A stretch of 64,000 nucleotides of DNA from NCBI GenBank assembly GCA_013414765.1, contig CP058708.1, forward strand, positions 4,630,748-4,694,747, in the 5' to 3' direction. This DNA is from Candidatus Accumulibacter cognatus. GTDB taxonomy: Bacteria > Pseudomonadota > Gammaproteobacteria > Burkholderiales > Rhodocyclaceae. A program made the translations under genes and the position numbers. Below the pieces are notes generated by a model. It was not told the DNA's origin. It made no database searches and worked only from the letters and a program-made list of their open reading frames with translations. This document shows positions 16,770 to 30,096 of this stretch, piece by piece (position 1 is the first letter of the stretch; the number at the start of each line of letters is the position of its first letter).

Positions 16770-17870
16770 GCGCTCAGCAAAAAGTCATCCGATAATCGGA
16801 GCCGAAGCCGCCCAGAATTTTGTCGACGTTGGCCTCAAGTGTCGGAGCGTTCCTGGCTTTGAAGGCCATCCACTCGTACTTCATCTTGTACTTCATCTTG
16901 TACTTCATCTTGTACTTCATCTTGTGCCAGAGCTTCTCAACGCGGTTCAGTTCTGGGCTGTCAGGGGGCAAGAAGTAAAGCGTGAGTCCCTTCTGCTTCA
17001 GGAGAGCCAGCAGGGGCTGGATGGCCTTGGCCTGGTGGATGGACGCATTGTCCAGAATGAACGTCAAGGGTCTGCCGACGCTTTCCAGAAGGAGACCCAG
17101 GAAACCTCCAAGGAGCGCCGCGGTCGTGGTCTCCCAGAACTTGGCCGTGAACAACTCCCCCCTCGAGATCAACGCGGCCAGCACATTCAGGCGCTTCCCG
17201 CGCTCGGCCGTAATGCGGTGAACCTCTCCTGTTTCGGTCCATGCGCTCCGATTGGGCTGCGCCTGCGCAAAGCCCGCTTCATCCAGGTAGGTCAGCCCCA
17301 TTTCACCACGCTTTGATTTTTCAAGCAATTCTTCTATTTCTGCCTGGGCTCCCCGAAATTTGGCTTCGTCTCGTTTTTTAGGCTGTGCCGGGTCCTTTTC
17401 CAGACATAGCCCTGCTCTTTCAAGGCGCTTTGCACCAGCTACACCGACACCTGTACACCCTGTTCCTCTGACAGGCGGCTTCTCAACTGAGGGGCCGTAC
17501 AGGCTTCATCCTGTGCCCAGGCGCAGAGCACCTGCCGAAGGGTTTCCGATAGCTTGCGCGGGGCGCCACTGCGCGGCAGGTCCCGTAGTCCGGCAAAGCC
17601 TCGAACCAGCCAAGCATCCCTGTGGCAGGCCACGGTCTCCTTGCAATCTTTTGCTGGGTCACGACGGCATCGATCGACAGTCCCTGATCGAGGAGAAGGA
17701 TGGTCCGCGCTCGCCGACGTTCGCGCCAGTCGCTGCCCCGCTCGTCTATCTGCTTGAGTTGGCCGCGTTCCTCATCGGTGAGCGTCAGTGTTTTGGCTTT
17801 GCGGGACAGGGCGAGGCTTTCGGGAGGTGGGAGGAAAGTATAACGCGCATAAGTCGGAGGACTTATCCGG
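16770..17870 (-). mobile_element. IS630-family insertion sequence (degraded copy)
   Basis: Minus-strand ORFs encode an IS630/Tc1-type N-terminal HTH (KAKTLTLTDEERGQLKQI...) and a DDE domain (LDNASIHQAK...LYFLPPDSPELNRVEKLW), split over three reading frames. Confidence 0.6.
16774..17850 (-). pseudogene. IS630-family transposase, disrupted
   Basis: Interrupted by frameshifts and a 12-bp tandem repeat (CATCTTGTACTT x4) inside the DDE coding region. Confidence 0.55.
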
Positions 17871-18124
17871 AAGCGCTTAGCGTCATCGTGGATGAGGCGA
17901 CCGGCGAGTACAGCGTTGCCGTCGCGGACGCCTACGCTGGTCAGGGAATCGGCTCGGAAATCATGCGGCAATTGCTCGACGCCGCGCATGGACACCACTT
18001 GAAGCGCATCGTCAGGCAAGTGTTGAGTGAGAACGATGGAATGGTCGTAACCATGGATGTACTAGGTTTCAGCGTGTCGATGACCGACGATCCGGAAATC
18101 ATGGATCTCAGTCTGCGTCTCTGA
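17862..18124 (+). pseudogene. GNAT-family N-acetyltransferase fragment (C-terminal part only)
   Basis: YAGQGIGSEIMRQLLDAA...RIVRQVLSEN resembles the acetyl-CoA-binding motif A region of GNATs; no N-terminal half is present; abuts the IS630 remnant. Confidence 0.4.
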
Positions 18125-18308
18125 CGCAGGGGTGATTTCGCGGTTGCCCCTGTCCGCCGCAGCTCTTATGCTTCCCCTGGGTGTCTTCATTCGGTGACGC
18201 CGCATTGCCCGACTGCTGCAATGCCCGGAGTCAGCCGGATGGGAGGGAATCTTGTCAAGCGTCGAACCCGCTGCCTCCCTGGTAGCAGTCGTGCTTCTAA
18301 GCTTCTAA

Positions 18309-19891
18309 CTGAAGTTTAGACACTCGCAATCGCCAGCGGATGCCGAAGACATTCCGGCGCCGCAAAAATTTTTCGAAGAAATACAAAAAAGACTTGACAT
18401 GACGTGGGAATCGTGAGGTCGCCGCGCGCTGCTTGCGCAGGGTTCTCGCGCAAGCAGCGCGCGGCGACCAATGAGGGATCGTTTTCGATCCTGGACTTTC
18501 CCTCATGTCTCTCGCTGCCAACGTCTGCTTGCTACTCTCGGAATGGATTTCCTTTCTCCTGGTGGCGGTGCCACCGCGTTCTCGCCGGACCTTCGTCGAA
18601 CTGCTGATCGGTTGCCTGCTCAACCCGGAAGGCTGGGTCACGCGGGCCATCGGGGCCATTCGCCGGGAGGCACACTGGACCACCTATTACAAGCTCATCG
18701 AGCGAGCACAGGTGCCGGTCACGGAATTGTCGCTGCGTTTGTTACAGCTGGTGCTGACGGTGTGCCCCACCGAACTGGTCACCCTGATCCTCGACGATAC
18801 GCTGGTTCTGCGCGGCGCGAAGTCCGGGCCGGGGATCAGTATCAAGCACGATCACAGCCACAAGGCCAATCGGCCGACCTTTCTGAACAGCCAGTGCTGG
18901 GTCACGCTGGCCCTGGTCGTGCGCGTCCGCCTGGGTTCGGCGCTGACGGTGCCGATTCGCTCGTGGCTGCTCGAAGAATCGGGTCAGCGCGGCAAGCTCT
19001 GGGGGGCACGCCAACTGATGGACTCGGTCCGGGGGCACGTCCAGGGGGGGCGCTTGCTGATCGATGCCTGGTTCATGCGCCGCACCCTGATTCTTCCGTT
19101 GCTCGAACAACCGGTCCGCATCATCGGACAGGTGCGCCGCGATACGGCCTTGTTTCTGCCGCCGGAACCGGAGCCGAAACGCCGAGGCCGCCAGCGCAAG
19201 TACGGCCAGCGGATCGATGCGGCGAGGCTCGAAACCTTGCCGGTGCAGGAGATGGAGCTGATGCTGTACGGCAAGGTGCAGCGGGTTCGGGTGCGTTCGG
19301 TCATCGCTGTGGCGCGATTCCTGAAGGGGCTCCCGGTACGCGCGGTGTGGTGCGAGATGCTCCTGCCCGATCACACCTGGTCGCGCCCACGCCTGATTCT
19401 GGCCACCGAGACCGACCTGTCGGCCCAACAGGTCGTCGCGATCTACGCCGAGCGCTGGGCGATCGAGCCCTTGTTTCACCACCTGAAGCGCTGGTGGGGC
19501 GTGGCCAATCTGTGGCAGCAGTCGAAGGCCGCGCTGGAACTGTGGATGCAGATTCGCTCCACGGCCTACGCGTTGACGCAACTGCTCGCCCTGCAGTTGT
19601 GGCCGTCCTTTCCGCTGATGGCCATCGCCCCCTGGAGAAAGGGTGCCATGATCACTGCGGGCCTTTTCGCCCAGGGGCTGCGCATGCAATTTATCGGACT
19701 TCCCGTGCGCGACGCCTACGACTCGAAGTCCGGTCAATTCGTGATGCCTCTCCCCGGTCAGGATCAGCGTTTGCAGTGTTGAGACGTCTCGCCCAGCGTC
19801 GATCGGCGCTGGGGAATGCCATTGTCTTGAAAGCCATCGCTCGCCTCCGCGAAAACCCGGCGAGCGGAGCACGCGTGTGTCTAAACTTCAG
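18309..19891 (+). mobile_element. IS701-like (IS4 superfamily) insertion sequence, apparently intact
   Basis: Perfect 15-bp terminal inverted repeats CTGAAGTTTAGACAC (18309-18323) and GTGTCTAAACTTCAG (19877-19891); flanking 8-bp direct repeat GCTTCTAA (18301-18308 and 19892-19899); single 425-aa DDE transposase ORF. Confidence 0.75.
18505..19782 (+). CDS. IS701-family DDE transposase
   Basis: 425 aa; ...AIYAERWAIEPLFHHLKRWWG... C-terminal motif typical of IS4/IS701 DDE transposases. Confidence 0.8.
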   Translation: MSLAANVCLLLSEWISFLLVAVPPRSRRTFVELLIGCLLNPEGWVTRAIGAIRREAHWTTYYKLIERAQVPVTELSLRLLQLVLTVCPTELVTLILDDTLVLRGAKSGPGISIKHDHSHKANRPTFLNSQCWVTLALVVRVRLGSALTVPIRSWLLEESGQRGKLWGARQLMDSVRGHVQGGRLLIDAWFMRRTLILPLLEQPVRIIGQVRRDTALFLPPEPEPKRRGRQRKYGQRIDAARLETLPVQEMELMLYGKVQRVRVRSVIAVARFLKGLPVRAVWCEMLLPDHTWSRPRLILATETDLSAQQVVAIYAERWAIEPLFHHLKRWWGVANLWQQSKAALELWMQIRSTAYALTQLLALQLWPSFPLMAIAPWRKGAMITAGLFAQGLRMQFIGLPVRDAYDSKSGQFVMPLPGQDQRLQC

Positions 19892-20251
19892 GCTTCTAAG
19901 AAAGCTCGCCCATATGTGAAAGAACCTTGCGGTCGGATGAACTCTCGGTGAGGAAGGAGATGATCCGGATCTCGCCGCCTCACTTCAGACGGAACTGCGG
20001 GAAGTTCTCATAAATCCGGGCAAGCAGCAGGGCCCACGCGGTTCGCTCTACCTGGCGATGGATCGGCTCTTCTGTAGCTTGTATCTGAACTGCTGCGCTC
20101 GGTGCGGTGGGGAGCGGAACGTTACAGACCTCCGTTGGTGTTTGCGCTGCCGGCGTTTCGGGTGGACACGGGTCTGCAGGCCTCGAAATCCTTTTCGATC
20201 ACGGGAGTGCTTTTGAATCGACGGGTCCACGGGCCAGATCGGTGACCTGGG

Positions 20252-21550
20252 CTACGGCCCCTGTATCGCCGACACGCCGCGTTTCTTCAGGAATTTTCCA
20301 AGTTTTCGGTCGCTGGAATGGATGTGCTGCACCAGCCAGGCATGCAGCGATATCACCAACTGTCGCAGGTCGATCTGCGGGTTGGCCTTCAGTTGCAGGT
20401 CGTAGCTCGACAGTACGTCGGCCAGTTGCAGGTGCTGCGCCTGGTGCTCCCCTCTGTCCGGATAAGCGTGTTCGTGCATGAGGTCCTCCTCGAATGAAAA
20501 GTGGCTGCGCACATACTCGATCAGCGCCTTCATCACCTTTCTCGTTTCGCTCTTCTTGTCGCCCGAATGCGTGCTGGCGTCAAATCGGTTGAGGATGCGG
20601 ATCAGTTCCTGGTGCTGAGCATCGATCGAGGTGTCCCCCGTCTCGTAGGTGAATGACCACGCCAGCAAGGGGTTGCTGGCCTCCGCGAGCGGTTTCTTGA
20701 TGCGTGGCTTCGATGCGACTTCGTAAGGCGGGTTTTCCGCAAAGTCGGTCAAGGCCGCCAGCGGTAGCGGACGCGAGAAATGGTAGCCCTGGATGACATC
20801 ACAACCGTTGGCTTCGAGGAAGGCCATCTGTTCCAGGGTTTCCACCCCCTCGGCAACGGTCATGATGTCAAGCTTGTTGGCCATCTCGATGATCGCCAGC
20901 ACGATGGGAATGTTGTTTTGATCCCGGATGAACGACTGGTCGATCTTCAGGTAATCGAAAGGCAGTTGGTACAGGTAGGACAGGGACGAGTAGCCGGTGC
21001 CGAAATCGTCCAGGGCGAGATTGACACCGATCTTCTTCAGGGCCATGAGCGTGGCCTTGGTCGCCGCAAAGTCGTTGATGAAGGCGCTTTCCGTGATTTC
21101 CAGGGTCAGGCGGTAACCGGCCATGCCGTCAAGCGCTTCGGTCACCTTCGCCACGATGTCGCTCTGGGTGAGTTGCAACGGCGACAGGTTGACGGACATG
21201 TTGATGCCGGTACTGCGCATGACGCGACAGGCTTCCTGCAGGACCCACTCGCCGAGCGTGCAGATCAGGCCAGCCTCTTCGGCGATGGGAATGAAGCGCG
21301 CCGGACTGATGATTCCCAGTTCCGGGTGCGCCCATCGCACCAGCGCCTCGGCGCCGTGTACGCTCCGGCTGACCAGGCAGAGCTGCGGCTGATAATGCAG
21401 CAACAGATCACCGGGGATGGCCTGGCGCAGAGCGTTTTCGACCATCATTTTTTCCAGTGCCTGCGCGTTGATCCGTTCCGTGAAGAACTGGAAATTGTTC
21501 CGTCCCTGAGTCTTGGCATGATACATGGCGACATCGGCGTGCTTGAGCAA
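20252..21550 (-). CDS. EAL phosphodiesterase with C-terminal bacteriohemerythrin domain (downstream segment of the same gene)
   Basis: Begins inside the GGDEF C-terminus (HADVAMYHAK), then EAL motifs (EALVRW...DDFGTGYSSL...QGY) and a hemerythrin HHE cation-binding domain (IDAQHQELIRILN...H...H...H...D). Confidence 0.8.
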   Translation of the reverse strand: MLKHADVAMYHAKTQGRNNFQFFTERINAQALEKMMVENALRQAIPGDLLLHYQPQLCLVSRSVHGAEALVRWAHPELGIISPARFIPIAEEAGLICTLGEWVLQEACRVMRSTGINMSVNLSPLQLTQSDIVAKVTEALDGMAGYRLTLEITESAFINDFAATKATLMALKKIGVNLALDDFGTGYSSLSYLYQLPFDYLKIDQSFIRDQNNIPIVLAIIEMANKLDIMTVAEGVETLEQMAFLEANGCDVIQGYHFSRPLPLAALTDFAENPPYEVASKPRIKKPLAEASNPLLAWSFTYETGDTSIDAQHQELIRILNRFDASTHSGDKKSETRKVMKALIEYVRSHFSFEEDLMHEHAYPDRGEHQAQHLQLADVLSSYDLQLKANPQIDLRQLVISLHAWLVQHIHSSDRKLGKFLKKRGVSAIQGP

Positions 21551-21685
21551 ATCCGCGACGGACTCGCCGTCGGTCGGGTAGATGGCGATGCCTATCGAGG
21601 AAGTGGTGGTGACGGTATGCCTGTCGATCCGGCAGGGCTTGCCAATCGCGGCCAGAAGCTTTTGGGCAGCGTGCGTGATATCGGC

Positions 21686-22753
21686 CTAGTCGTTGAAATC
21701 CTCGAGCAGCAGCACGAACTCGTCGCCGCCCTGCCGCGAGACGGTGTCCGTGGCGCGCAGGCAGTTCTGGATGCGACGCGCCACTTCCTGCAGGAGCAGG
21801 TCTCCCACCTCGTGGCCGAGGGTGTCGTTAACCCCCTTGAACTTGTCGAGGTCGATGAACATCACCGCGAGCCTGGAGCGGTTCCGCTCCGCGCGCCCGA
21901 TCGCCTGTCTGATCCGGTCTTCCACCAGGCTGCGGTTGGGCAACCCGGTCAGGAAGTCGTGATGCGCCATGTGTTCGATTCTTGCCATCGTCCGGCTGGC
22001 TTCGGTGATGTCGTTCATCAGGCCGATGTAGTTGGTCACCGATTCGCCCGTCCGGACGATACTGATGTTGGCGTGGACCAGATACTCTTCGCCGGTCTTC
22101 TTCCTGTTCCATATGTCGCCCTGCCAATGGCCGATTTCGTGCAGGGTTTGCCACATCTTCTGAAAGAAGCTGCGCGGATGGCACTGGGAAGCAAACAGCC
22201 TGGGATTCCTGCCGAGCATTTCATCGGTGCGAAAGCCTGTCAGCCCTTCCAGCGCCCTGTTGGCAGAGATGATGAGGTTGTCCTGACTGGTGATCACGAT
22301 CCCTTCCGAGGCGTTCTCGAAAACACTGGCGGACAGTTTCAATTGCTCCTCGGCCTCCTTGTGACGGGTGATGTCCTGGAGTACCTCGATCGCACCAATG
22401 ATCTTGTCGCCGCTGAACAGCGGTTTTGCCTCGAAGGTCAGGTAACGTCGCTTGCCCTTGAGGTCGTCGAACCAGCCTTCCGCCTTGTAGCCATCACTGG
22501 CAAATTCCGTTCTCTCATGCAGACTGTAGAAGCGCGAAGCGTCCGCCAGCAGGTTGTCCAGTACCAGGTCGGCCAGGCAGGGTCTGGGCTCATCGTAGAA
22601 GCCCTTCCAGTGATCGTTGGTGCCCAGGACATCGGCGGCGGCGATGCCGGTCAACAACTCGCACGGACCATTCCAGGCCACCACCACATGCCGGGTGTCG
22701 ACCATGAATGCGGGCAGACTCAGGGCATTCAGTATGCTGCTATTCATTGCCAT
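21686..22753 (-). CDS. PAS-PAS-GGDEF sensor diguanylate cyclase, N-terminal segment ending at an in-frame TAG
   Basis: Two PAS domains then GGDEF-domain motifs (HDFLTGLPNR...RQGGDEFVLLL); the reading frame continues in frame across the TAG at 21686-21688 into the next ORF. Confidence 0.8.
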   Translation of the reverse strand: MAMNSSILNALSLPAFMVDTRHVVVAWNGPCELLTGIAAADVLGTNDHWKGFYDEPRPCLADLVLDNLLADASRFYSLHERTEFASDGYKAEGWFDDLKGKRRYLTFEAKPLFSGDKIIGAIEVLQDITRHKEAEEQLKLSASVFENASEGIVITSQDNLIISANRALEGLTGFRTDEMLGRNPRLFASQCHPRSFFQKMWQTLHEIGHWQGDIWNRKKTGEEYLVHANISIVRTGESVTNYIGLMNDITEASRTMARIEHMAHHDFLTGLPNRSLVEDRIRQAIGRAERNRSRLAVMFIDLDKFKGVNDTLGHEVGDLLLQEVARRIQNCLRATDTVSRQGGDEFVLLLEDFND

Positions 22754-23218
22754 GTTCTCTCAATTAATTCGGAGGCACGCTGCCCGCGGTGTGCAGGCTT
22801 GCCGTGCCATCTTCCCTGGGGATGACCGAGTCCTACGCAGAAGATTTTTCGTCCACAACCGACCATACTAGCCAGGGTGGGTGAGCGTGGGCAGGACTTA
22901 TTTCGCATCCATTGGATAGGCGCGCCCGGCCGGCGCGCGGACCCGCTGCCCCAACGGCATGCAGCCGTCCGTGCGTCAGCGCACAGAGCAGCGGCGGAGC
23001 AATCGGTATCATTCTCAAACGCCCCGTAGCTGCCCCTTCCGGTTCAGAGGGTGTGGGTCGTGCTCCTGCTCATCCAAGGCGGTACCGACCTCCGAAGGAT
23101 TTGTGCAGGCCCTACAAGAGAAGTCAGTCATGCCCGAAAAGGAAAACAACTCCATGCCTGCCGGCAGAGCGTCACCACCCGGACGAATCTTCCTCCAGCC
23201 AATCAGCGAAATTATGCA

Positions 23219-23975
23219 TTAAGCATATGTTCTAGTAAAAAAATATCCAATTCCGTGAAATCGGCGCCTGCCTACGCGGCGTAGCTTGTCGGCTTTTTCC
23301 TTGAGCGGGAAGAACAGGCCGATGAACTCGAGGATTTGGGCCTGTTGATCTTCCGGGTGTGGCGAATGCGGGTGACGCTGACCGTTACGGCCGGTGCTGA
23401 AGAGATAGGTCAATCGTCCGAGCGCCACCAAGGCGTCGTCCGGAGTGATGGCGGCGGGGTCGTCTTCGGTGCTGCCGAAGGTCCGGTGTAGATCGGTTTC
23501 AAACCGCCGCGTGATCTTCATGGCGAGCATTGCCACGAAGGCATGCGCCTTGGTCCGCTCGGCCTTGCACGGGAAGGAAGATCGGGTGAGTTTTCAGGAA
23601 GGTGGTTTTCAGGGTACGGAAGTTGCGCTCGACTATTACAGGTTGAGCTTGCTTTCCACAGTGCTGCCCAGCACCCGCATGGTGCCCGCTTCGTCGCCAA
23701 CTGCTTAACCGTTGGCGATGAGGCTGCGCACTCGGGCAGGCAATCGCTCCCCTGGCGCGCATATCCGTTAAATAAAGGCACATTCCGAATGGAAGCGCTC
23801 GCCGCCTTTTGATGTCCGGGCGCCGGGTTTCGACATCGTGTGCGCGCAGCAGGTCTATGAACTGGCCGTCTGATGGCATGCGGCAAGCGCCCGGGGGCCT
23901 GGCCCGCTGGTGCCCGCGGGCGCATGGTTCAAAGCAGCGAGATTCTGTGCGCGCCTGCCGTTTCGGTGAGCACAA
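23219..23975 (-). pseudogene. IS5-family (IS427/IS1031-type) transposase remnant
   Basis: Frameshifted fragments PVIVERNFRTLKTTF / AHAFVAMLAMKITRR resemble the C-terminal VVERtFaWL...RRL region of IS5-group transposases; no intact ORF. Confidence 0.4.
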
Positions 23976-24954
23976 ACTCGACAGGCAGGAACTTGCCGAT
24001 CACTTCCACATTGGTCTGCAGATGCGAAGACACCCTCACCGTGGTGAAGGACCCGGCACCGGCGAGTGCCAGCGGCAGGACCAGCTGATCTGCCAGATGC
24101 TCGCCCACCACTGCAGTGCTGTCATGAAAATGCCGGGCGAGCTTCGCCACACGGTTGGCCACCACTTCAGCCGGCAAACCCTTTTCGCCAAAGGCAGTGA
24201 ACAGTTCGGTGATTTCTCTGTATTGCAGCTCAACCAGTAAAGCATTTCCTGGCCCCTCGCGCGAAGGCAGGGCACGCAGTTCCTGCTGCAATTCCCCCAG
24301 CACCCCGCCGAGCTGCAAGTCCAGTTCCGCCAGCTCGCGTTTGGCCACCTCAACGGGCACCCCCGCGACGATGGCCGTCGCCCGCGCTGCGCGCAGCTCG
24401 CCACGCTCCAGCAACTCGAAGGACTGCAGGGCCGAGACCGGACATACCCTGGCGTACAGCTCACCGCCGCCTGCCGGATAAAAGCCGTGGCGTAGCAGCT
24501 CGATGGCCATCTCCACACCCATGCGCAGGAGCAGCGGCAGCCAGCTACGGCTCAGAAAATCGAGTGGCGGTGCCGCTGGATTGTGGGTTCCGCCGCTGAT
24601 CCGCAGCGTGCTCGGTGCATCGGCGAACCACAGCGCCGGCAACAAGGTCTGCAGTACCAAGGTGCAGCTACCGGCCGTGCCAATGGCAAAGCGGTAGTCG
24701 TCACCGCGAATCTTGCCAGGGACAAAGCTCAGGGCTTGTGAACCCGGTGCCGCCCCCTGTACCTGTGCGCCGCAGATCTGCGCGGCGGCATTCACCGCCG
24801 TCAGATGCTGCCGCAACAAGCCAGGCTTGCTGCGCCTTGCACGAATTCGCTCGATGCGAAACGGTATTCCGGTAATCATCGACAAGGTCAGTGCGGTACG
24901 CAGAATTTGCCCGCCGCCTTCTCCGTGCGATCCGTCGAGTTCAATCATCTTCAT
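23929..24954 (-). CDS. rtcA: RNA 3'-terminal phosphate cyclase
   Basis: MIELDGSHGEGGGQILRTALTLSMITGIPFRIERIRARRSKPGL is the canonical RtcA N-terminus. Confidence 0.9.
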   Translation of the reverse strand: MKMIELDGSHGEGGGQILRTALTLSMITGIPFRIERIRARRSKPGLLRQHLTAVNAAAQICGAQVQGAAPGSQALSFVPGKIRGDDYRFAIGTAGSCTLVLQTLLPALWFADAPSTLRISGGTHNPAAPPLDFLSRSWLPLLLRMGVEMAIELLRHGFYPAGGGELYARVCPVSALQSFELLERGELRAARATAIVAGVPVEVAKRELAELDLQLGGVLGELQQELRALPSREGPGNALLVELQYREITELFTAFGEKGLPAEVVANRVAKLARHFHDSTAVVGEHLADQLVLPLALAGAGSFTTVRVSSHLQTNVEVIGKFLPVEFVLTETAGAHRISLL

Positions 24955-24982
24955 TCTTTCTTCTTGTTCCAGAAAGTAACTC

Positions 24983-26202
24983 TCAACCCTTGACGCACAC
25001 CACCTGGCGCAGAGTATGTACCACCTCCACGAGTTCGCGCTGCGCGTGCATCACCGCATCGATATCCTTGTAGGCCATCGGGATTTCATCGATCACATCG
25101 GCATCCTTCCGGCACTCGACGTGGGCGGTGGCGCGCTCCTGGTCGGCAACGGTGAAGCGGCGTCGGGCTTCGTTCCGGCTCATTGTTCGTCCGGCGCCGT
25201 GACTGCAGGAGCAAAACGATTCCTTGTTGCCCAGGCCGCGCACGATGAAACTCTTGGCGCCCATCGAACCCGGAATGATGCCGAGTTCGCCTTTCTGTGC
25301 CGAGACCGCCCCCTTGCGGGTGACCAATACTTCCGCACCAAAGTGAGTCTCGCGCTGGACGTAGTTGTGGTGGCAGTTTACGGCCTCGACGCTGGCGCCA
25401 AACGGTTTGGCAATCACGCCACGCGTAGCCGCAATGACGTTCTGCATCATCAGCAGACGATTTCGCCGCGCAAAATCCTGCGCCCAGCCGACAGCTTCGA
25501 CGTATTCGTTGAAGTGCTGGCTTCCCTCCTCAAAATAGGCGAGGTCACGATTCGGCAGATGGGAGATGTGCTGCTGCATATCCTTCTGTGCCAGTTTGAT
25601 GAAGTGGCTACCGATGGCATTACCGACGCCGCGCGAACCGGAATGCAGCATGAACCAGACGCGATCCGCTTCGTCGAGACAGACTTCGATGAAGTGGTTG
25701 CCGGTACCAAGCGTGCCGAGGTGCTTGTGGTTGTTGGTGTTCTTGAGACAAGGATGCCGGTCGGTGATGCGTGTAAAGCCTTCGATCAAACCAGCCCACA
25801 TGGCATCGACACTTGCCGGTGGCGTATCCCATGACCCTTCGTCGCGCCGGCCCCGGCCCATCGTTCGCCCGTGCGGCACGGCGCGCTCAATGGCCGTACG
25901 CAGCGCCAGCAGATTGTCCGGCAAATCGGTCGCCAGCAGCGTCGTGCACGCGGCCATCATGCCGCAGCCGATATCGACACCGACGGCAGCCGGGATGATC
26001 GCACCCTGCGTCGGGATGACGCTGCCGATCGTCGAACCCTTGCCCAGGTGTACATCTGGCATCACCGCCAGGTGCCGATAGATGAAGGGCATTCTGGCGG
26101 TGTCGATCAACTGCTTGCGGGCTTCGTCCTCAACCGGAACGTCTTGCGTCCACATCTTGATCGGTTTGCCGTTTTCGACTTCGAGGAGTTGATAGTCCAT
26201 TT
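24983..26202 (-). CDS. rtcB: RNA-splicing ligase RtcB
   Basis: RtcB signatures (NCHHNYV, GSMGAKS, SHGAGR); start at MDYQLLEV. Confidence 0.9.
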
Positions 26203-26213
26203 CCGTAATTCTT

Positions 26214-26615
26214 TCACTGATCGTCGGCGGCCTGCTTCTTCTGCAGGCCTTCCTGTTGCATACGGCGGGCCTGTGACTTGCGTTCGCGTTCCTTGATACG
26301 ACAAGGCCTGCATCGTACCGCGGTCGTTTCAACATTGCCCTGGGCAACTTCGTACCACCACTTTTGCTGCGTTGCGGTCCAGACGCACTCGACGCCGCAA
26401 TCCCTGCACCGGAAAGCAATGTCCACGTAATAACCGCGTTCGATGAACGCAGGCGCCCCGTAGCTGATGCGGCGAGCCAGGCGGGTCGTATCACACCACA
26501 CGATGCCCGAAGAGTAGACGTCAACCGACAGTGGCGAGGGGCTGCTCTGAATGCGCGTCGTACGCCGTAACCGGGCACTCTTGATTTCCAGCTTGCGCTG
26601 TTTTCCACTTTTCAT
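26214..26615 (-). CDS. C4 zinc-ribbon protein with lysine/arginine-rich tails (Rtc-operon associated)
   Basis: 133 aa; CRDCGVEC...x21...CRPC zinc-ribbon spacing; basic N- and C-termini suggest nucleic-acid binding; 11 nt upstream of rtcB. Confidence 0.55.
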   Translation of the reverse strand: MKSGKQRKLEIKSARLRRTTRIQSSPSPLSVDVYSSGIVWCDTTRLARRISYGAPAFIERGYYVDIAFRCRDCGVECVWTATQQKWWYEVAQGNVETTAVRCRPCRIKERERKSQARRMQQEGLQKKQAADDQ

Positions 26616-26699
26616 GATTTCACCTACACTTTCTGATTACCGCATTTTCAGGTTTTCACCGCTCGCTCTCTCCCTACATCGCACGAGAGGGTAAGCGAC

Positions 26700-27845
26700 T
26701 CACGCGCCCTTGATGTTCACCAGTCCGCTCAACACCTGATCCAGGCCACCAAACACCGAAATGCGGTCGATTCGTTCCGCCACACGTTCCAGGGTTTCCA
26801 GCTCCTTCAGACGCAGCGCGACCGGGTTTCCTTCCATCACTTTCGCGGTATTGAGCAGCGAACGTGTTGCCGCGGTTTCCTCACGGCGACGAATGACGTT
26901 CGCCTCAGCCAGCTTTCCGGCTTCGACCACCTTGGCAAGAATGGTCTTCATTTCGCCGGGCAGAACGATGTCCTTGACGCCGATGCTGCTCACCTCGATC
27001 CCGAAGCCGTTCAGCTTGCGCGCCACGTGCGCGCTGACTGCTTCGTCGATGATCTGCTTGTTTTCCAGCAGCTCGTCGAGCGATCGTGTTCCCACCGCGG
27101 CCCGCAAGCCGAACTGCAGTTCTCGATACAGGTGTTCGACTGGCTTTGCCAGCTTTTCGTGCGCCAGCAGCACGTCGGTATAGCGCCAGGTAGCCGCAAG
27201 GTTGAGGCGCAGGCCGACCTTGTCGCTGCTCAGAATTTCCTGGCCCGACACTTCCATGTTCTGCAGACGCATATCGACGAGTTCAACCAGCACTTCGCGG
27301 TTGAAGCGCCAGAATACCTCGACGCCGGGTGACATCAATCGCTGCACCTTGCCGTCGACGCGCAGAATGCCGACGTGGTAGGCAGGCACCTGCGCGATTA
27401 GCAGGCCGGCCAGGCCGCTCACCGCGTGCGCCCGCAGGCTCGGCTGCAGGAAGTGCGCTGCCAGTTGCGGTCCGACTTCATAGCCTTGCTGCAGATCGAC
27501 TTTTTCCAGTCTATGCTCGGCCAGGCCCTTCCAGAAAATGCGTCGTGACCCAGGCGCCAGCACTTCGACCAGGATCTTGTTCTCATAGCGCAATCCTGCC
27601 TCGTCCTCACCCAGTTCCATGCAGACGAAATGTTCCGCAACGGTCTGCGGCTGATGCTGAAGCAGGTAGTCGACCAGCGTGATGTCGCGCATGGGAGCGT
27701 CGAGCTTCCAGCTCTGGACCGAGAGCCGGTTCACAGGGTCGAAGAAGTAGTAACGGCCAGCGCTGAGAATGCGTTCGAAATCACCTTCCTTGAACAAGGC
27801 AGCCCGTTCACTCTTCAACACGACGAAACGCTTCAACATGTTCAT
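26700..27845 (-). CDS. SPFH/band-7 (slipin-like) domain protein
   Basis: 381 aa; band-7 core (IAQVPAYHVGILRVDGKV...NMEVSGQEILSSDKVGLRLNL...) plus C-terminal coiled-coil; first ORF downstream of the sigma54 promoter. Confidence 0.85.
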   Translation of the reverse strand: MNMLKRFVVLKSERAALFKEGDFERILSAGRYYFFDPVNRLSVQSWKLDAPMRDITLVDYLLQHQPQTVAEHFVCMELGEDEAGLRYENKILVEVLAPGSRRIFWKGLAEHRLEKVDLQQGYEVGPQLAAHFLQPSLRAHAVSGLAGLLIAQVPAYHVGILRVDGKVQRLMSPGVEVFWRFNREVLVELVDMRLQNMEVSGQEILSSDKVGLRLNLAATWRYTDVLLAHEKLAKPVEHLYRELQFGLRAAVGTRSLDELLENKQIIDEAVSAHVARKLNGFGIEVSSIGVKDIVLPGEMKTILAKVVEAGKLAEANVIRRREETAATRSLLNTAKVMEGNPVALRLKELETLERVAERIDRISVFGGLDQVLSGLVNIKGA

Positions 27846-28106
27846 TCTCCTTTGCTGTTGTTCTGTTGCCGGTCAATGCCGGTCCGCTGGGCCGATTGCC
27901 CGGCACTCGCGGGGAAGCGAGTGGCTGCCTGCCGGAGTCAGCGCTTCTCCCTTGGTGCCGAGGCACGCGGGGGAGGGCTGACATTCCTGCTTCGTCGCCT
28001 GCTCACCGTGCCGCCAGTGCGGGACAGTCGCCGACCGGACCGGCAGCGGGAGCTTGCGCATCCCGCGACCGACGGGTACTGCTAGCTTACGCTGTCGTGG
28101 AAAGAC

Positions 28107-28180
28107 AGTTTGGAGCGGGAATCGAACCCGCGACACACTGAGGATGAGTCAGTTGCTCTAACCGATTGAGCTATCCAATG
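28107..28180 (-). ncRNA. tRNA-like element (tRNA-Met CAU-like D-, anticodon- and T-arms, imperfect acceptor stem)
   Basis: Minus strand reads CATTGGA-TA-GCTCAATCGGTTAGAGC-A-ACTGA-CTCATCC-TCAGT-GTGTC-GCGGGTTCGATTCCCGC-TCCAAAC-T. The D-arm is near-identical to tRNA-Met; the anticodon loop carries CAT but pyrimidines at 37 and 38; two mismatches (1-72, 2-71) in the acceptor stem. Confidence 0.5.
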
Positions 28181-28181
28181 G

Positions 28182-28227
28182 GGGCGACCCGGGAATCGAA
28201 CCCGACGAGCTCCCGACGAGATCGCCC
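28182..28227 (-). ncRNA. Mini tRNA-like hairpin (acceptor-like stem enclosing a T-arm)
   Basis: GGGCGAT...TCGGGTTCGATTCCCGG-GTCGCCC-CCA: a 7-bp stem (GGGCGAT/GTCGCCC) closing a canonical T-stem-loop (TTCGATT), immediately 5' of the tRNA-like element on the same strand. Confidence 0.35.
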
Positions 28228-28351
28228 GTTATCGCCTTCCCGCTGTGGCGGCATGCACAGAAACGACAGACCGGAATCCGGTCTCTGCGCACCGGCGGGG
28301 TTTTGATCCCCTGCCCGTGGGCGTGCAGCGATGTTGCGACAGCTCTTCCAC

Positions 28352-28368
28352 AGCGAAATTCGTGCCAA
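28352..28368 (-). promoter_or_regulatory. sigma54 (-24/-12) promoter driving the tRNA-like elements, SPFH gene, zinc-ribbon gene, rtcB and rtcA
   Basis: Minus strand TGGCAC-GAATT-TCGCT against the consensus TGGCAC-N5-TTGCW; GG-N10-GC spacing is correct; divergent from rtcR, which encodes the cognate sigma54 activator. Confidence 0.55.
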
Positions 28369-28506
28369 CCTCTCGGAGAACCGCGGCATTGCATTCAAGC
28401 CATTGATCTGGCGAGATCTCCAGGATATTTGCGGCTTCCGTGAAAACAGGAGTGGGCGGCTTTTATTAGAATATAGAATCGATATTTATCTTTAAGGATA
28501 GTCAAC

Positions 28507-30096
28507 ATGAAGAGGAGCGTCGTCATCGGTTTTCTCGGTACGCAACTCGATTACGGTGGCAAGGGTAGCGCACGATGGGAGAAGTGGCGGCCGACGGTCG
28601 CCCTCTGCCAGCAGGAGGAGCTGATCGTTCATCGTCTGGAGTTGCTGCATGATGCACGCAGCCGCGGGCTGGCCGAGAGTGTGCAGGCGGACATCCAGTC
28701 GATATCGCCCGAAACCGAAGTCTGCCGCGTCGAGATCGAGCTGCGCGACCCCTGGGATTTCGAGGAAGTCTACACGACGCTGCACGACTTCGCGCGCGCT
28801 TACCCGTTCGACCCCGAGAACGAGGATTACCTGCTGCACATCACGACAGGAACCCATGTCGCACAGATCTGCTGGTTCCTGCTGGCCGAAGCGCGCTATT
28901 TGCCGGCCCGACTCCTGCAGACCTCACCGGCACGCAAGAAGGAGGTGGCGAATACTGCCGGAAGCTACGAGATCATCGATCTGGACCTGTCGCGCTACAA
29001 CAAGATTGCGCAGCGCTTTCAGCGCGAGCGCGCCGACACGGTGAGCTTCCTGAAATCCGGGATTGCCACGCGCAACGCCAGTTTCAACCGCATGATCGAG
29101 CAGATCGAACGGGTAGCGGGGCGCTCGAAGTCGCCAATGCTGCTGATCGGCCCCACCGGTGCGGGCAAATCGTTTCTCGCCCGCCGGGTGTACGAACTCA
29201 AGCGACAGAAGCAGCGTCTGGCCGGACGTTTCATCGAGGTGAACTGCGCGACCTTGCGCGGCGATTCGGCCATGTCCAGCCTTTTCGGCCACGTCAAGGG
29301 AGCCTTCACGGGGGCGCAAAATGAACGCCCCGGGCTCCTTCGAGCGGCCGATGGCGGATTGCTGTTTCTAGACGAAATCGGCGAACTCGGACTGGACGAG
29401 CAGGCAATGCTACTCAAGGCGATCGAGGAAAAGCGCTTCTTCCCCTTCGGTGGCGACCAGGAAGTAACGAGCGACTTCCAGCTCATCGCCGGCACCCATC
29501 GCGACCTGCGCCATTGGGTTGCCGAGGGGCATTTCCGCGAAGACCTGTATGCGCGCATCAACCTGTGGACCTTCGACCTGCCCGGCCTGGCTCAACGGCC
29601 CGAGGACATCGAGCCCAATCTCGATTACGAGCTGGAACGTTATGCGCGTGACCATGATCAGCTCGTGCGCTTCAACGTCGAAGCCCGCCGCCGCTATCTG
29701 GCCTTTGCCAGCTCGGCGGACGCTGTCTGGAGCGGCAATTTCCGTGAACTCTCGGCATCGGTCACGCGCATGGCGACTCTGGCCGAAGCGGGACGGATCA
29801 CCGAGGCGCTGGTTATCGAGGAGATCGAGCGGCTTGGCCACAGCTGGGTCAGCCGCCGGCCGGCCGATGCGGTCGCTGCTATCCTGGGCGAACAGGCCGA
29901 GCAACTCGACCTCTTCGATCGCTGCCAGCTTAACGCGGTGATCGCTGTTTGCCGGCAAGCGGCAAGCCTTTCGGATGCCGGTCGACAGCTTTTCGCCGTA
30001 TCCCGCTTGGACAAGAAAACGGCCAACGACGCTGACCGGCTGCGCAAATACCTGTCACGCTTCGGCCTCGACTGGACGGCCGTAAATCACCAATGA
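28507..30096 (+). CDS. rtcR: sigma54-dependent transcriptional regulator RtcR (CARF domain + AAA+ + HTH)
   Basis: 529 aa; N-terminal CARF-like domain, central sigma54-interaction AAA+ (LLIGPTGAGKS...GAFTGA...GGLLFLDEIGEL), C-terminal HTH; divergent from the rtcBA operon. Confidence 0.9.
   Translation: MKRSVVIGFLGTQLDYGGKGSARWEKWRPTVALCQQEELIVHRLELLHDARSRGLAESVQADIQSISPETEVCRVEIELRDPWDFEEVYTTLHDFARAYPFDPENEDYLLHITTGTHVAQICWFLLAEARYLPARLLQTSPARKKEVANTAGSYEIIDLDLSRYNKIAQRFQRERADTVSFLKSGIATRNASFNRMIEQIERVAGRSKSPMLLIGPTGAGKSFLARRVYELKRQKQRLAGRFIEVNCATLRGDSAMSSLFGHVKGAFTGAQNERPGLLRAADGGLLFLDEIGELGLDEQAMLLKAIEEKRFFPFGGDQEVTSDFQLIAGTHRDLRHWVAEGHFREDLYARINLWTFDLPGLAQRPEDIEPNLDYELERYARDHDQLVRFNVEARRRYLAFASSADAVWSGNFRELSASVTRMATLAEAGRITEALVIEEIERLGHSWVSRRPADAVAAILGEQAEQLDLFDRCQLNAVIAVCRQAASLSDAGRQLFAVSRLDKKTANDADRLRKYLSRFGLDWTAVNHQ

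Follow-up and report, generated by a model that had tools for sequence, protein, structure and literature searches.

A strain-private amber codon interrupts a PAS-PAS-GGDEF-EAL-hemerythrin gene in Candidatus Accumulibacter cognatus

In the 64,000-nt stretch of the Candidatus Accumulibacter cognatus genome analysed here (contig CP058708.1, positions 4,630,748 to 4,694,747; hereafter the window), a gene for a multidomain enzyme of cyclic di-GMP (c-di-GMP) turnover is cut by one in-frame amber codon. The gene lies on the minus strand at 20252..22747 and in its intact form has a PAS-PAS-GGDEF-EAL-hemerythrin architecture. The stop, at 21686..21688, is a real allele; it is derived, private to one strain and recent. 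We consider it highly likely that the change is a recent, strain-private, single-base nonsense mutation that abolishes function, carried by a strain of Ca. A. cognatus enriched in a bioreactor.

One reading frame interrupted by a premature stop

Translated on the minus strand from 22753 to 20252, the locus gives 834 codons in one frame, with an internal stop at codon 356 and the terminal stop. The codons around the internal stop read GAG GAT TTC AAC GAC TAG GCC GAT ATC, with TAG at 21688..21686, and the open reading frames (ORFs) 21686..22753 (355 amino acids) and 20252..21550 (432 amino acids) share this frame with no frameshift between them. According to orthologue alignments, the conserved start is ATG 22747, which lies two codons in from the ORF start at 22753; from this ATG the gene has 831 codons plus a stop, with the ATG at 22753 as an alternative. 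The premature codon, number 356 when counted from 22753, is Glu354 of the intact 831-residue protein, and its T at 21688, where all relatives have G, is the derived base. A preliminary description of the window had proposed a protein of about 830 residues split by one nonsense codon without a frameshift, and the translation bears this out; the start that it used, 22753, has to be moved to 22747. In a six-frame scan of the window, this TAG is the sole in-frame stop with long coding sequence of high third-position GC content (GC3) on both flanks (357 and 477 codons).

Pfam profiles recover the architecture that had been read from the translation, including its divergent first PAS domain. This domain makes up the first 138 residues (about 22358-22741) and scores 27 bits against PF00989 (cutoff 22.6); the second PAS domain is at residues 144–253 (about 21995-22324). 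The GGDEF match (PF00990, TIGR00254) falls into two pieces, with profile positions 1-92 of 161 abutting the stop upstream (21692-21967) and positions 98-161 abutting it downstream (21494..21682), which indicates that one domain has been cut. The upstream piece holds the A-site (GGDEF, residues 342–346) and, five residues before it, the RxxD I-site (RATD-TVSRQ-GGDEF, residues 333–346). The downstream piece, an orphaned C-terminal third of the domain, corresponds to residues 2–64 of the downstream translation. No single polypeptide of the locus carries the complete GGDEF domain of ~160 residues, which is whole in the conspecific protein P0123 introduced below.

Both domains past the stop are complete. 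The EAL domain (about 20768-21436; full-length match to Pfam PF00563, E = 2.8e-69) has its entire motif set, EAL 469, EITE 552, DDFGTG 582, KID 603, EGVE 635 and IQGY 654, in columns that are invariant across a 17-sequence alignment. The hemerythrin domain (PF01814; about 20297-20635) scores 103–104 bits against the bacteriohemerythrin model NF033749 (cutoff 84) and keeps seven of seven diiron ligands (H714, H751, E755, H770, H774, H810 and D815), again invariant across 17 orthologues. On the NCBI record of a Ca. Accumulibacter cognatus metagenome-assembled genome (MAG; 5,169,514-bp contig), the two halves appear as adjacent proteins. The 353-residue QLH51988.1 ('diguanylate cyclase', 21689..22747) comprises both PAS domains and the upstream part of GGDEF. 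The 424-residue QLH51987.1 ('bacteriohemerythrin', 20252..21526) begins at the ATG at 21526 and would have 432 residues if the TTG at 21550 were used.

The codon in relatives and the reality of the allele

Full-length orthologues found by database search have 820–840 residues. The nearest of them (94% identity) carries Glu where the window has the stop (DFNDEADITH), and at the DNA level it is collinear with the window over 2,502 nt without indels, with GAG in place of TAG. The gene is likewise collinear, without indels, with intact orthologues at three sister loci (L001, L002 and L012). Nine loci from sister lineages of Candidatus Accumulibacter (propinquus, contiguus, UW18 and others; 92–95% nucleotide identity) carry GAG in eight cases and GAT in one (L004). 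Apart from the lineage of L003 and L010, which has a separate stop, the sister lineages with a full-length orthologue have it intact. Among more distant orthologues, Glu is the commonest residue at this position.

Scans of genome and metagenome contigs yielded sister lineages only, and conspecific sequences were obtained through the cluster members of protein P0001. Clustering at 90% identity groups the best hit with P0123 (WP_324576456.1, 831 amino acids), which differs from the read-through protein of the window at two positions, having Glu at the stop site and Phe for Leu at residue 160; the same cluster holds a partial protein, P0133. Ten conspecific contigs (L013–L022) from ENA, NCBI and Logan, derived from different samples and studies, encode P0123 or P0133. 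Over about 12.8 kb they match the window at 99.7–99.84% identity and with the same gene order (rtcR, SPFH, zf, rtcB, rtcA, hypothetical, orthologue of the disrupted gene, GNAT); eight of them (L013–L020) encode intact P0123, collinear with the gene of the window. Within the 2,496-nt gene only two sites are unique to the window. One is the G-to-T change at 21688, where all ten conspecifics have GAG, and the other is C rather than T at 22276 (CTC, Leu160, against TTC, Phe, in all eight conspecific contigs that cover it), where the window has the sister-species allele. The preliminary description had asked whether the interrupted codon is a sense codon elsewhere; it is so in 10/10 conspecific and 9/9 sister loci, and a stop at this codon is found in none of the 19.

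Across the shared 12.86 kb there are 11 differences private to the window, five of them within the 2.7 kb for which an alignment with sister species is possible. Of these five, the window alleles at 22891, 22890 and 22276 match all outgroups and that at 22836 matches two of five, which leaves the T at 21688 as the only polarised site that is clearly derived on the window branch. Clustering of private polymorphisms near the gene (5/11 in 2.7 kb) was considered as a sign of decay and rejected, as these are mostly ancestral alleles. Because its private alleles, such as the C at 22276, mostly match outgroups, the window represents a real and distinct strain, slightly basal within the species. The nonsense change is the sole evident mutation that its lineage has fixed at this locus.

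The window comes from a closed long-read MAG, and the possibility that the true base is G, with the gene intact in this strain too, has to be weighed against an independent assembly. Logan contig SRR8313048_38227 (L023), which encodes the 424-residue product, is 100% identical to the window over 21728..19863 (1,866 nt), TAG included, and extends 28 nt into the end of a neighbouring insertion sequence (IS), placing that end and the TAG on one molecule. An exact-product look-up of the 355-, 353- and 432-residue ORFs in the contig index gave no match. SRR8313048 is an Illumina paired-end bioreactor run, with SRR8305972 as its companion Nanopore run (PMC8862659). Arumugam et al. (2019) described a 5.2-Mb Accumulibacter long-read chromosome at 384x coverage, with short reads from the same DNA (PMC6469205), and, as size, organism and run agree, we infer that the window is this chromosome or a later deposit of it. 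The TAG is thus present on two sequencing platforms, in a Nanopore MAG and an Illumina-derived contig, which makes an assembly or polishing error very unlikely.

What speaks for a sequencing, assembly or consensus error is that the MAG was assembled from Nanopore long reads (PMC6469205) and that all other assemblies of the species have G. Against it stand the de Bruijn-graph contig, which reproduces the TAG with zero mismatches over its length, and the nature of the change itself, a substitution in a non-homopolymer context. Residual errors in Nanopore assemblies are chiefly indels. In addition, housekeeping genes in the window are intact, and most of the other private alleles match outgroups, as expected of a real basal strain and unlike random errors. 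An artefact, one of the options raised in the preliminary description, is accordingly very improbable and is essentially dismissed by the Illumina-derived contig.

Consequences of the stop and competing readings

We propose that the lineage of the bioreactor-enriched strain underwent, very recently, a single G-to-T transversion that converted GAG (Glu) to TAG. Translation would end midway through the GGDEF fold, with residue 353 as the last, and the N-terminal product would consist of the PAS domains and 57% of GGDEF, so that no complete cyclase domain could form. This 353-residue product, without the last ~40% of the fold, should not be an active cyclase. The EAL-hemerythrin part has no evident efficient start of its own and probably yields little or no protein. 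From these features we infer loss of function without a downstream product; the gene would be a young, strain-private pseudogene whose loss is neutral or tolerated in the strain, because c-di-GMP networks are highly redundant.

The age of the lesion can be judged from the rest of the gene. There are no further lesions: no indels separate it from its orthologues, and the catalytic and ligand motifs are all intact. The cognatus branch has accumulated 56 synonymous and 37 non-synonymous substitutions, similar to the 37:24 on the branch of the intact sister locus L004. Because both flanks of the stop are intact, indels are absent and the proportion of non-synonymous changes resembles that of an intact sister branch, inactivation would have been very recent; an old pseudogene under long-term relaxed selection was rejected on the same substitution counts. 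Of the options offered in the preliminary description, that of a recent inactivating mutation is the one favoured by the single G-to-T change and by the sense codon in every conspecific and sister locus.

Several points weigh against this interpretation. The loss of function is predicted from the sequence, and the downstream EAL-hemerythrin ORF is fully intact. Shine-Dalgarno (SD) pairing is weak even at the native start of the gene, and the lack of a strong internal SD sequence leaves internal initiation possible. The Illumina and Nanopore data come from one DNA sample, such that the platforms are independent and the biology is not; with confirmation at the level of contigs, the TAG could be just the majority allele of a mixed population.

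Lesions of this kind have precedents. Nonsense- and IS-disrupted GGDEF/EAL pseudogenes occur in Yersinia pestis and pathogenic Escherichia coli, and the likeness to the present case is the lineage-specific loss of redundant c-di-GMP genes by point mutation. Those losses accompany host adaptation and are fixed in their lineages, whereas the present one is found in one bioreactor-enriched strain without a known phenotype. For Shigella, a study that also mentions dgcE pseudogenes of E. coli documents GGDEF/EAL pseudogenes that carry premature stops (PMC11327459). In Shigella flexneri, dgcE, dgcM, dgcN, dgcQ and pdeR are c-di-GMP turnover genes with premature stops whose orthologues in relatives are intact (PMC11327459), and, as in the window, the coding sequence past the stop is still open. 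The Shigella lesions are fixed in the species; that of the window is private to one strain and known from sequence alone. We regard the present case as an ordinary young pseudogene of a well-known kind, with no new mechanism.

Could the stop instead have split the gene into two functional parts? Such a split would leave a sensor-less N-terminal stub and a separately translated EAL-hemerythrin phosphodiesterase initiated at the TTG at 21550 or the ATG at 21526, and might push the strain to lower c-di-GMP, an outcome possibly selected in an enrichment reactor. The downstream ORF, with its full complement of catalytic motifs and metal ligands, would be equipped for this and is already a separate coding sequence in GenBank; moreover, Shigella degenerate diguanylate cyclase genes with premature stops can give a second downstream product (PMC11327459). 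The geometry differs between the two systems. In Shigella the stop precedes GGDEF and an in-frame Met lies close by (few codons downstream in three of five genes), and a catalytic product is made (PMC11327459). In the window the stop cuts GGDEF, and the first in-frame starts, the TTG and the ATG, are 135 and 159 nt downstream, or 45–53 codons on. Their predicted pairing energies with the anti-SD sequence (-3.1 and -0.5 kcal/mol) are not stronger than the background within the gene, which has a mean of -3.2. This test has limited power, since the native start also scores only -2.9 kcal/mol and native starts in the region are weak as well, which keeps a weak SD from being disqualifying. A consensus scan found no promoter-like site inside the gene on the coding (minus) strand. 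Rho-dependent polarity, the usual outcome where a premature stop leaves a long stretch untranslated, would also count against translation of the distal part. Finally, because the arrangement is private to one strain (none of ten conspecific and none of nine sister loci has it), it is not an evolved regulatory design. The regulatory split with reinitiation considered in the preliminary description is not supported by this combination of a private stop, distant starts, background SD scores and no internal promoter, and we judge it unlikely; trace production of an EAL-hemerythrin protein from the downstream ORF is conceivable.

Programmed recoding, in which readthrough of the TAG, or its decoding by a suppressor tRNA or as pyrrolysine, would yield the full-length protein, would fit a lone TAG in frame between two stretches of undamaged coding sequence. 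The stop is, however, conserved in none of the 19 related loci. Of 18 long ORFs with high GC3 in the window, nine, the disrupted gene itself among them, end in TAG, and a tRNA scan of the window alone finds tRNA-Met as its only tRNA. No pyrrolysine is known from Betaproteobacteria of the family to which Accumulibacter belongs. With TAG an ordinary terminator, no suppressor tRNA in the window and no conservation of the stop, recoding is unsupported and scarcely credible; reassignment of the genetic code or a suppressor tRNA was rejected on the same stop-codon usage and tRNA scan.

Other alterations of the orthologue were seen in Accumulibacter. An independent in-frame nonsense change, GAA to TAA at codon 761, is present in a sister lineage at loci L003 (8275-8277) and L010; it is likewise a G-to-T change, in a C-G-A context, and it removes four of the seven hemerythrin ligands. 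Two records with the E761* allele, NCBI MAG JAKOZI01 and JGI metagenome contig Ga0208938_1000106, agree at every position (100%) over 1,464 nt of the gene and 900 nt of flank, and the 758-residue product of the allele is on record in NCBI, JGI and ENA. As the allele is the same in two separately assembled records, the gene does sustain nonsense alleles in nature. In one JGI protein (P0132) the hemerythrin C-terminus is apparently frameshifted, in a single, unverified 3.7-kb contig. In Ca. A. contiguus (P0121, P0126 and L005:1-472) the first PAS domain, ~145 codons, is replaced by unrelated sequence in six contigs, one of them of 3.9 Mb. These alterations suggest that the orthologue is unusually prone to truncation across Accumulibacter lineages.

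Taken with E761*, the frameshift in P0132 and the missing first PAS domain of Ca. A. contiguus, the stop of the window might also be something other than neutral decay. Enrichment reactors may have selected repeatedly for dismantling or rewiring of an O2- or redox-sensing c-di-GMP node, with a residual sensor-less EAL-hemerythrin phosphodiesterase made from an internal start. We hold this to be improbable. If true, the residual phosphodiesterase would lower c-di-GMP and alter aggregation or the production of extracellular polymeric substances under anaerobic/aerobic cycling.

Genomic surroundings and the intact family

An IS701-family insertion sequence lies at 18309..19885 on the plus strand, about 365 bp downstream of the stop codon of the gene. 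It has 19-nt terminal inverted repeats and a transposase gene at 18505-19782 (NF049999, 471 bits). GCTTCTAA is a candidate target duplication of 8 bp, of ambiguous length because the target site is a tandem repeat in its own right. Of the ten conspecific contigs, nine have the empty site; the exception is L015 (GCA_044229675.1), which has the element and an intact gene. Its position outside the gene and its presence in L015 beside an intact copy led us to reject the element as the cause of the disruption. Because L015 shares the IS yet keeps the gene intact, the most parsimonious order would be insertion of the IS first and the nonsense mutation later.

Homology of the window to sister loci L001, L002, L003 and L012 begins 185 bp upstream of the gene (22938) and stops exactly at its stop codon (20252). 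The flanks of these loci (a ferritin gene; a histidine kinase/response regulator cluster) are unrelated to those of the window (the rtc operon; a GNAT gene), and only L004 (UW18) has the 3' flank of the window, as far as the IS insertion point. Within the genus, the gene seems to have been shifted as a cassette from one genomic context to another. A -10-like hexamer at 22865-22870, about 115 bp upstream of the start, reads TAGTAT in the window and TAGAAT in sister species. It sits within the conserved block CTGGCTAG(T/A)ATGG, was missed by the consensus promoter scan and may represent the promoter of the gene itself.

The gene adjoins an RNA-repair locus (23929-30096) that consists of rtcA (23929-24954), rtcB (within 24983-26608), an SPFH/Band-7 gene (26700-27845), the tRNA-Met gene (28107-28180) and the divergently transcribed sigma-54 activator gene rtcR (28507-30096). 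On the far side of the IS701 element, at 16774-17328, is a truncated IS630-family transposase ORF of 184 amino acids that matches profile positions 138–277 of 299. It holds a 12-nt tandem repeat, CTTGTACTTCAT, in about four copies (16873-16932), which on the coding strand specifies repeated Met-Lys-Tyr-Lys. A plasmid origin was rejected, as megablast of window positions 17000-27000 against PLSDB gave trivial matches only.

For the intact protein, known parallels are Bhr-DGC of Vibrio cholerae and Bhr-HD-GYP of Ferrovum sp. (PMC9388753), in which a bacteriohemerythrin with the 5-His/Glu/Asp ligand set is coupled to c-di-GMP catalysis. By analogy, this coupling implies that O2 or redox state would control c-di-GMP in the intact protein. 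The arrangement is different, with an N-terminal hemerythrin and a single catalytic domain in the two known proteins and a C-terminal hemerythrin following PAS-PAS-GGDEF-EAL in the protein considered here. Its PAS-GGDEF-EAL core aligns over about 540 residues with DibA, PdeR and DosP (NF045675, NF007474 and NF008467), all of which are without a hemerythrin domain. The scores for these named enzymes are far below their equivalog cutoffs (548 bits against 980 for DibA, the best NCBIfam match), and the intact protein is therefore no orthologue of any of them. Placement of hemerythrin C-terminal to EAL is conserved in about 20 orthologues from Rhodocyclaceae, Propionivibrio and Rhodospirillaceae down to 45% identity (alignment A1). 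A 2022 review noted that no hemerythrin-EAL phosphodiesterase had been discovered or characterised (PMC9388753), and the combination of GGDEF-EAL with a C-terminal hemerythrin is biochemically uncharacterised though widely annotated in databases.

Public annotation presents this locus as two ordinary coding sequences, and it is better described as one disrupted gene. The split annotation would mislead counts of c-di-GMP enzymes, and metabolic or regulatory models, built on a reference-quality closed Accumulibacter genome. The locus also offers a minor but clear-cut case of a gene lost very recently from a laboratory-enriched population, with a nonsense allele that can be dated relative to an IS701 insertion common to the strain and one relative whose gene is intact. 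The intact family may merit more attention than the lesion, as it has an architecture that is biochemically uncharacterised and is found in an organism that depends on oxic/anoxic cycling for its lifestyle.

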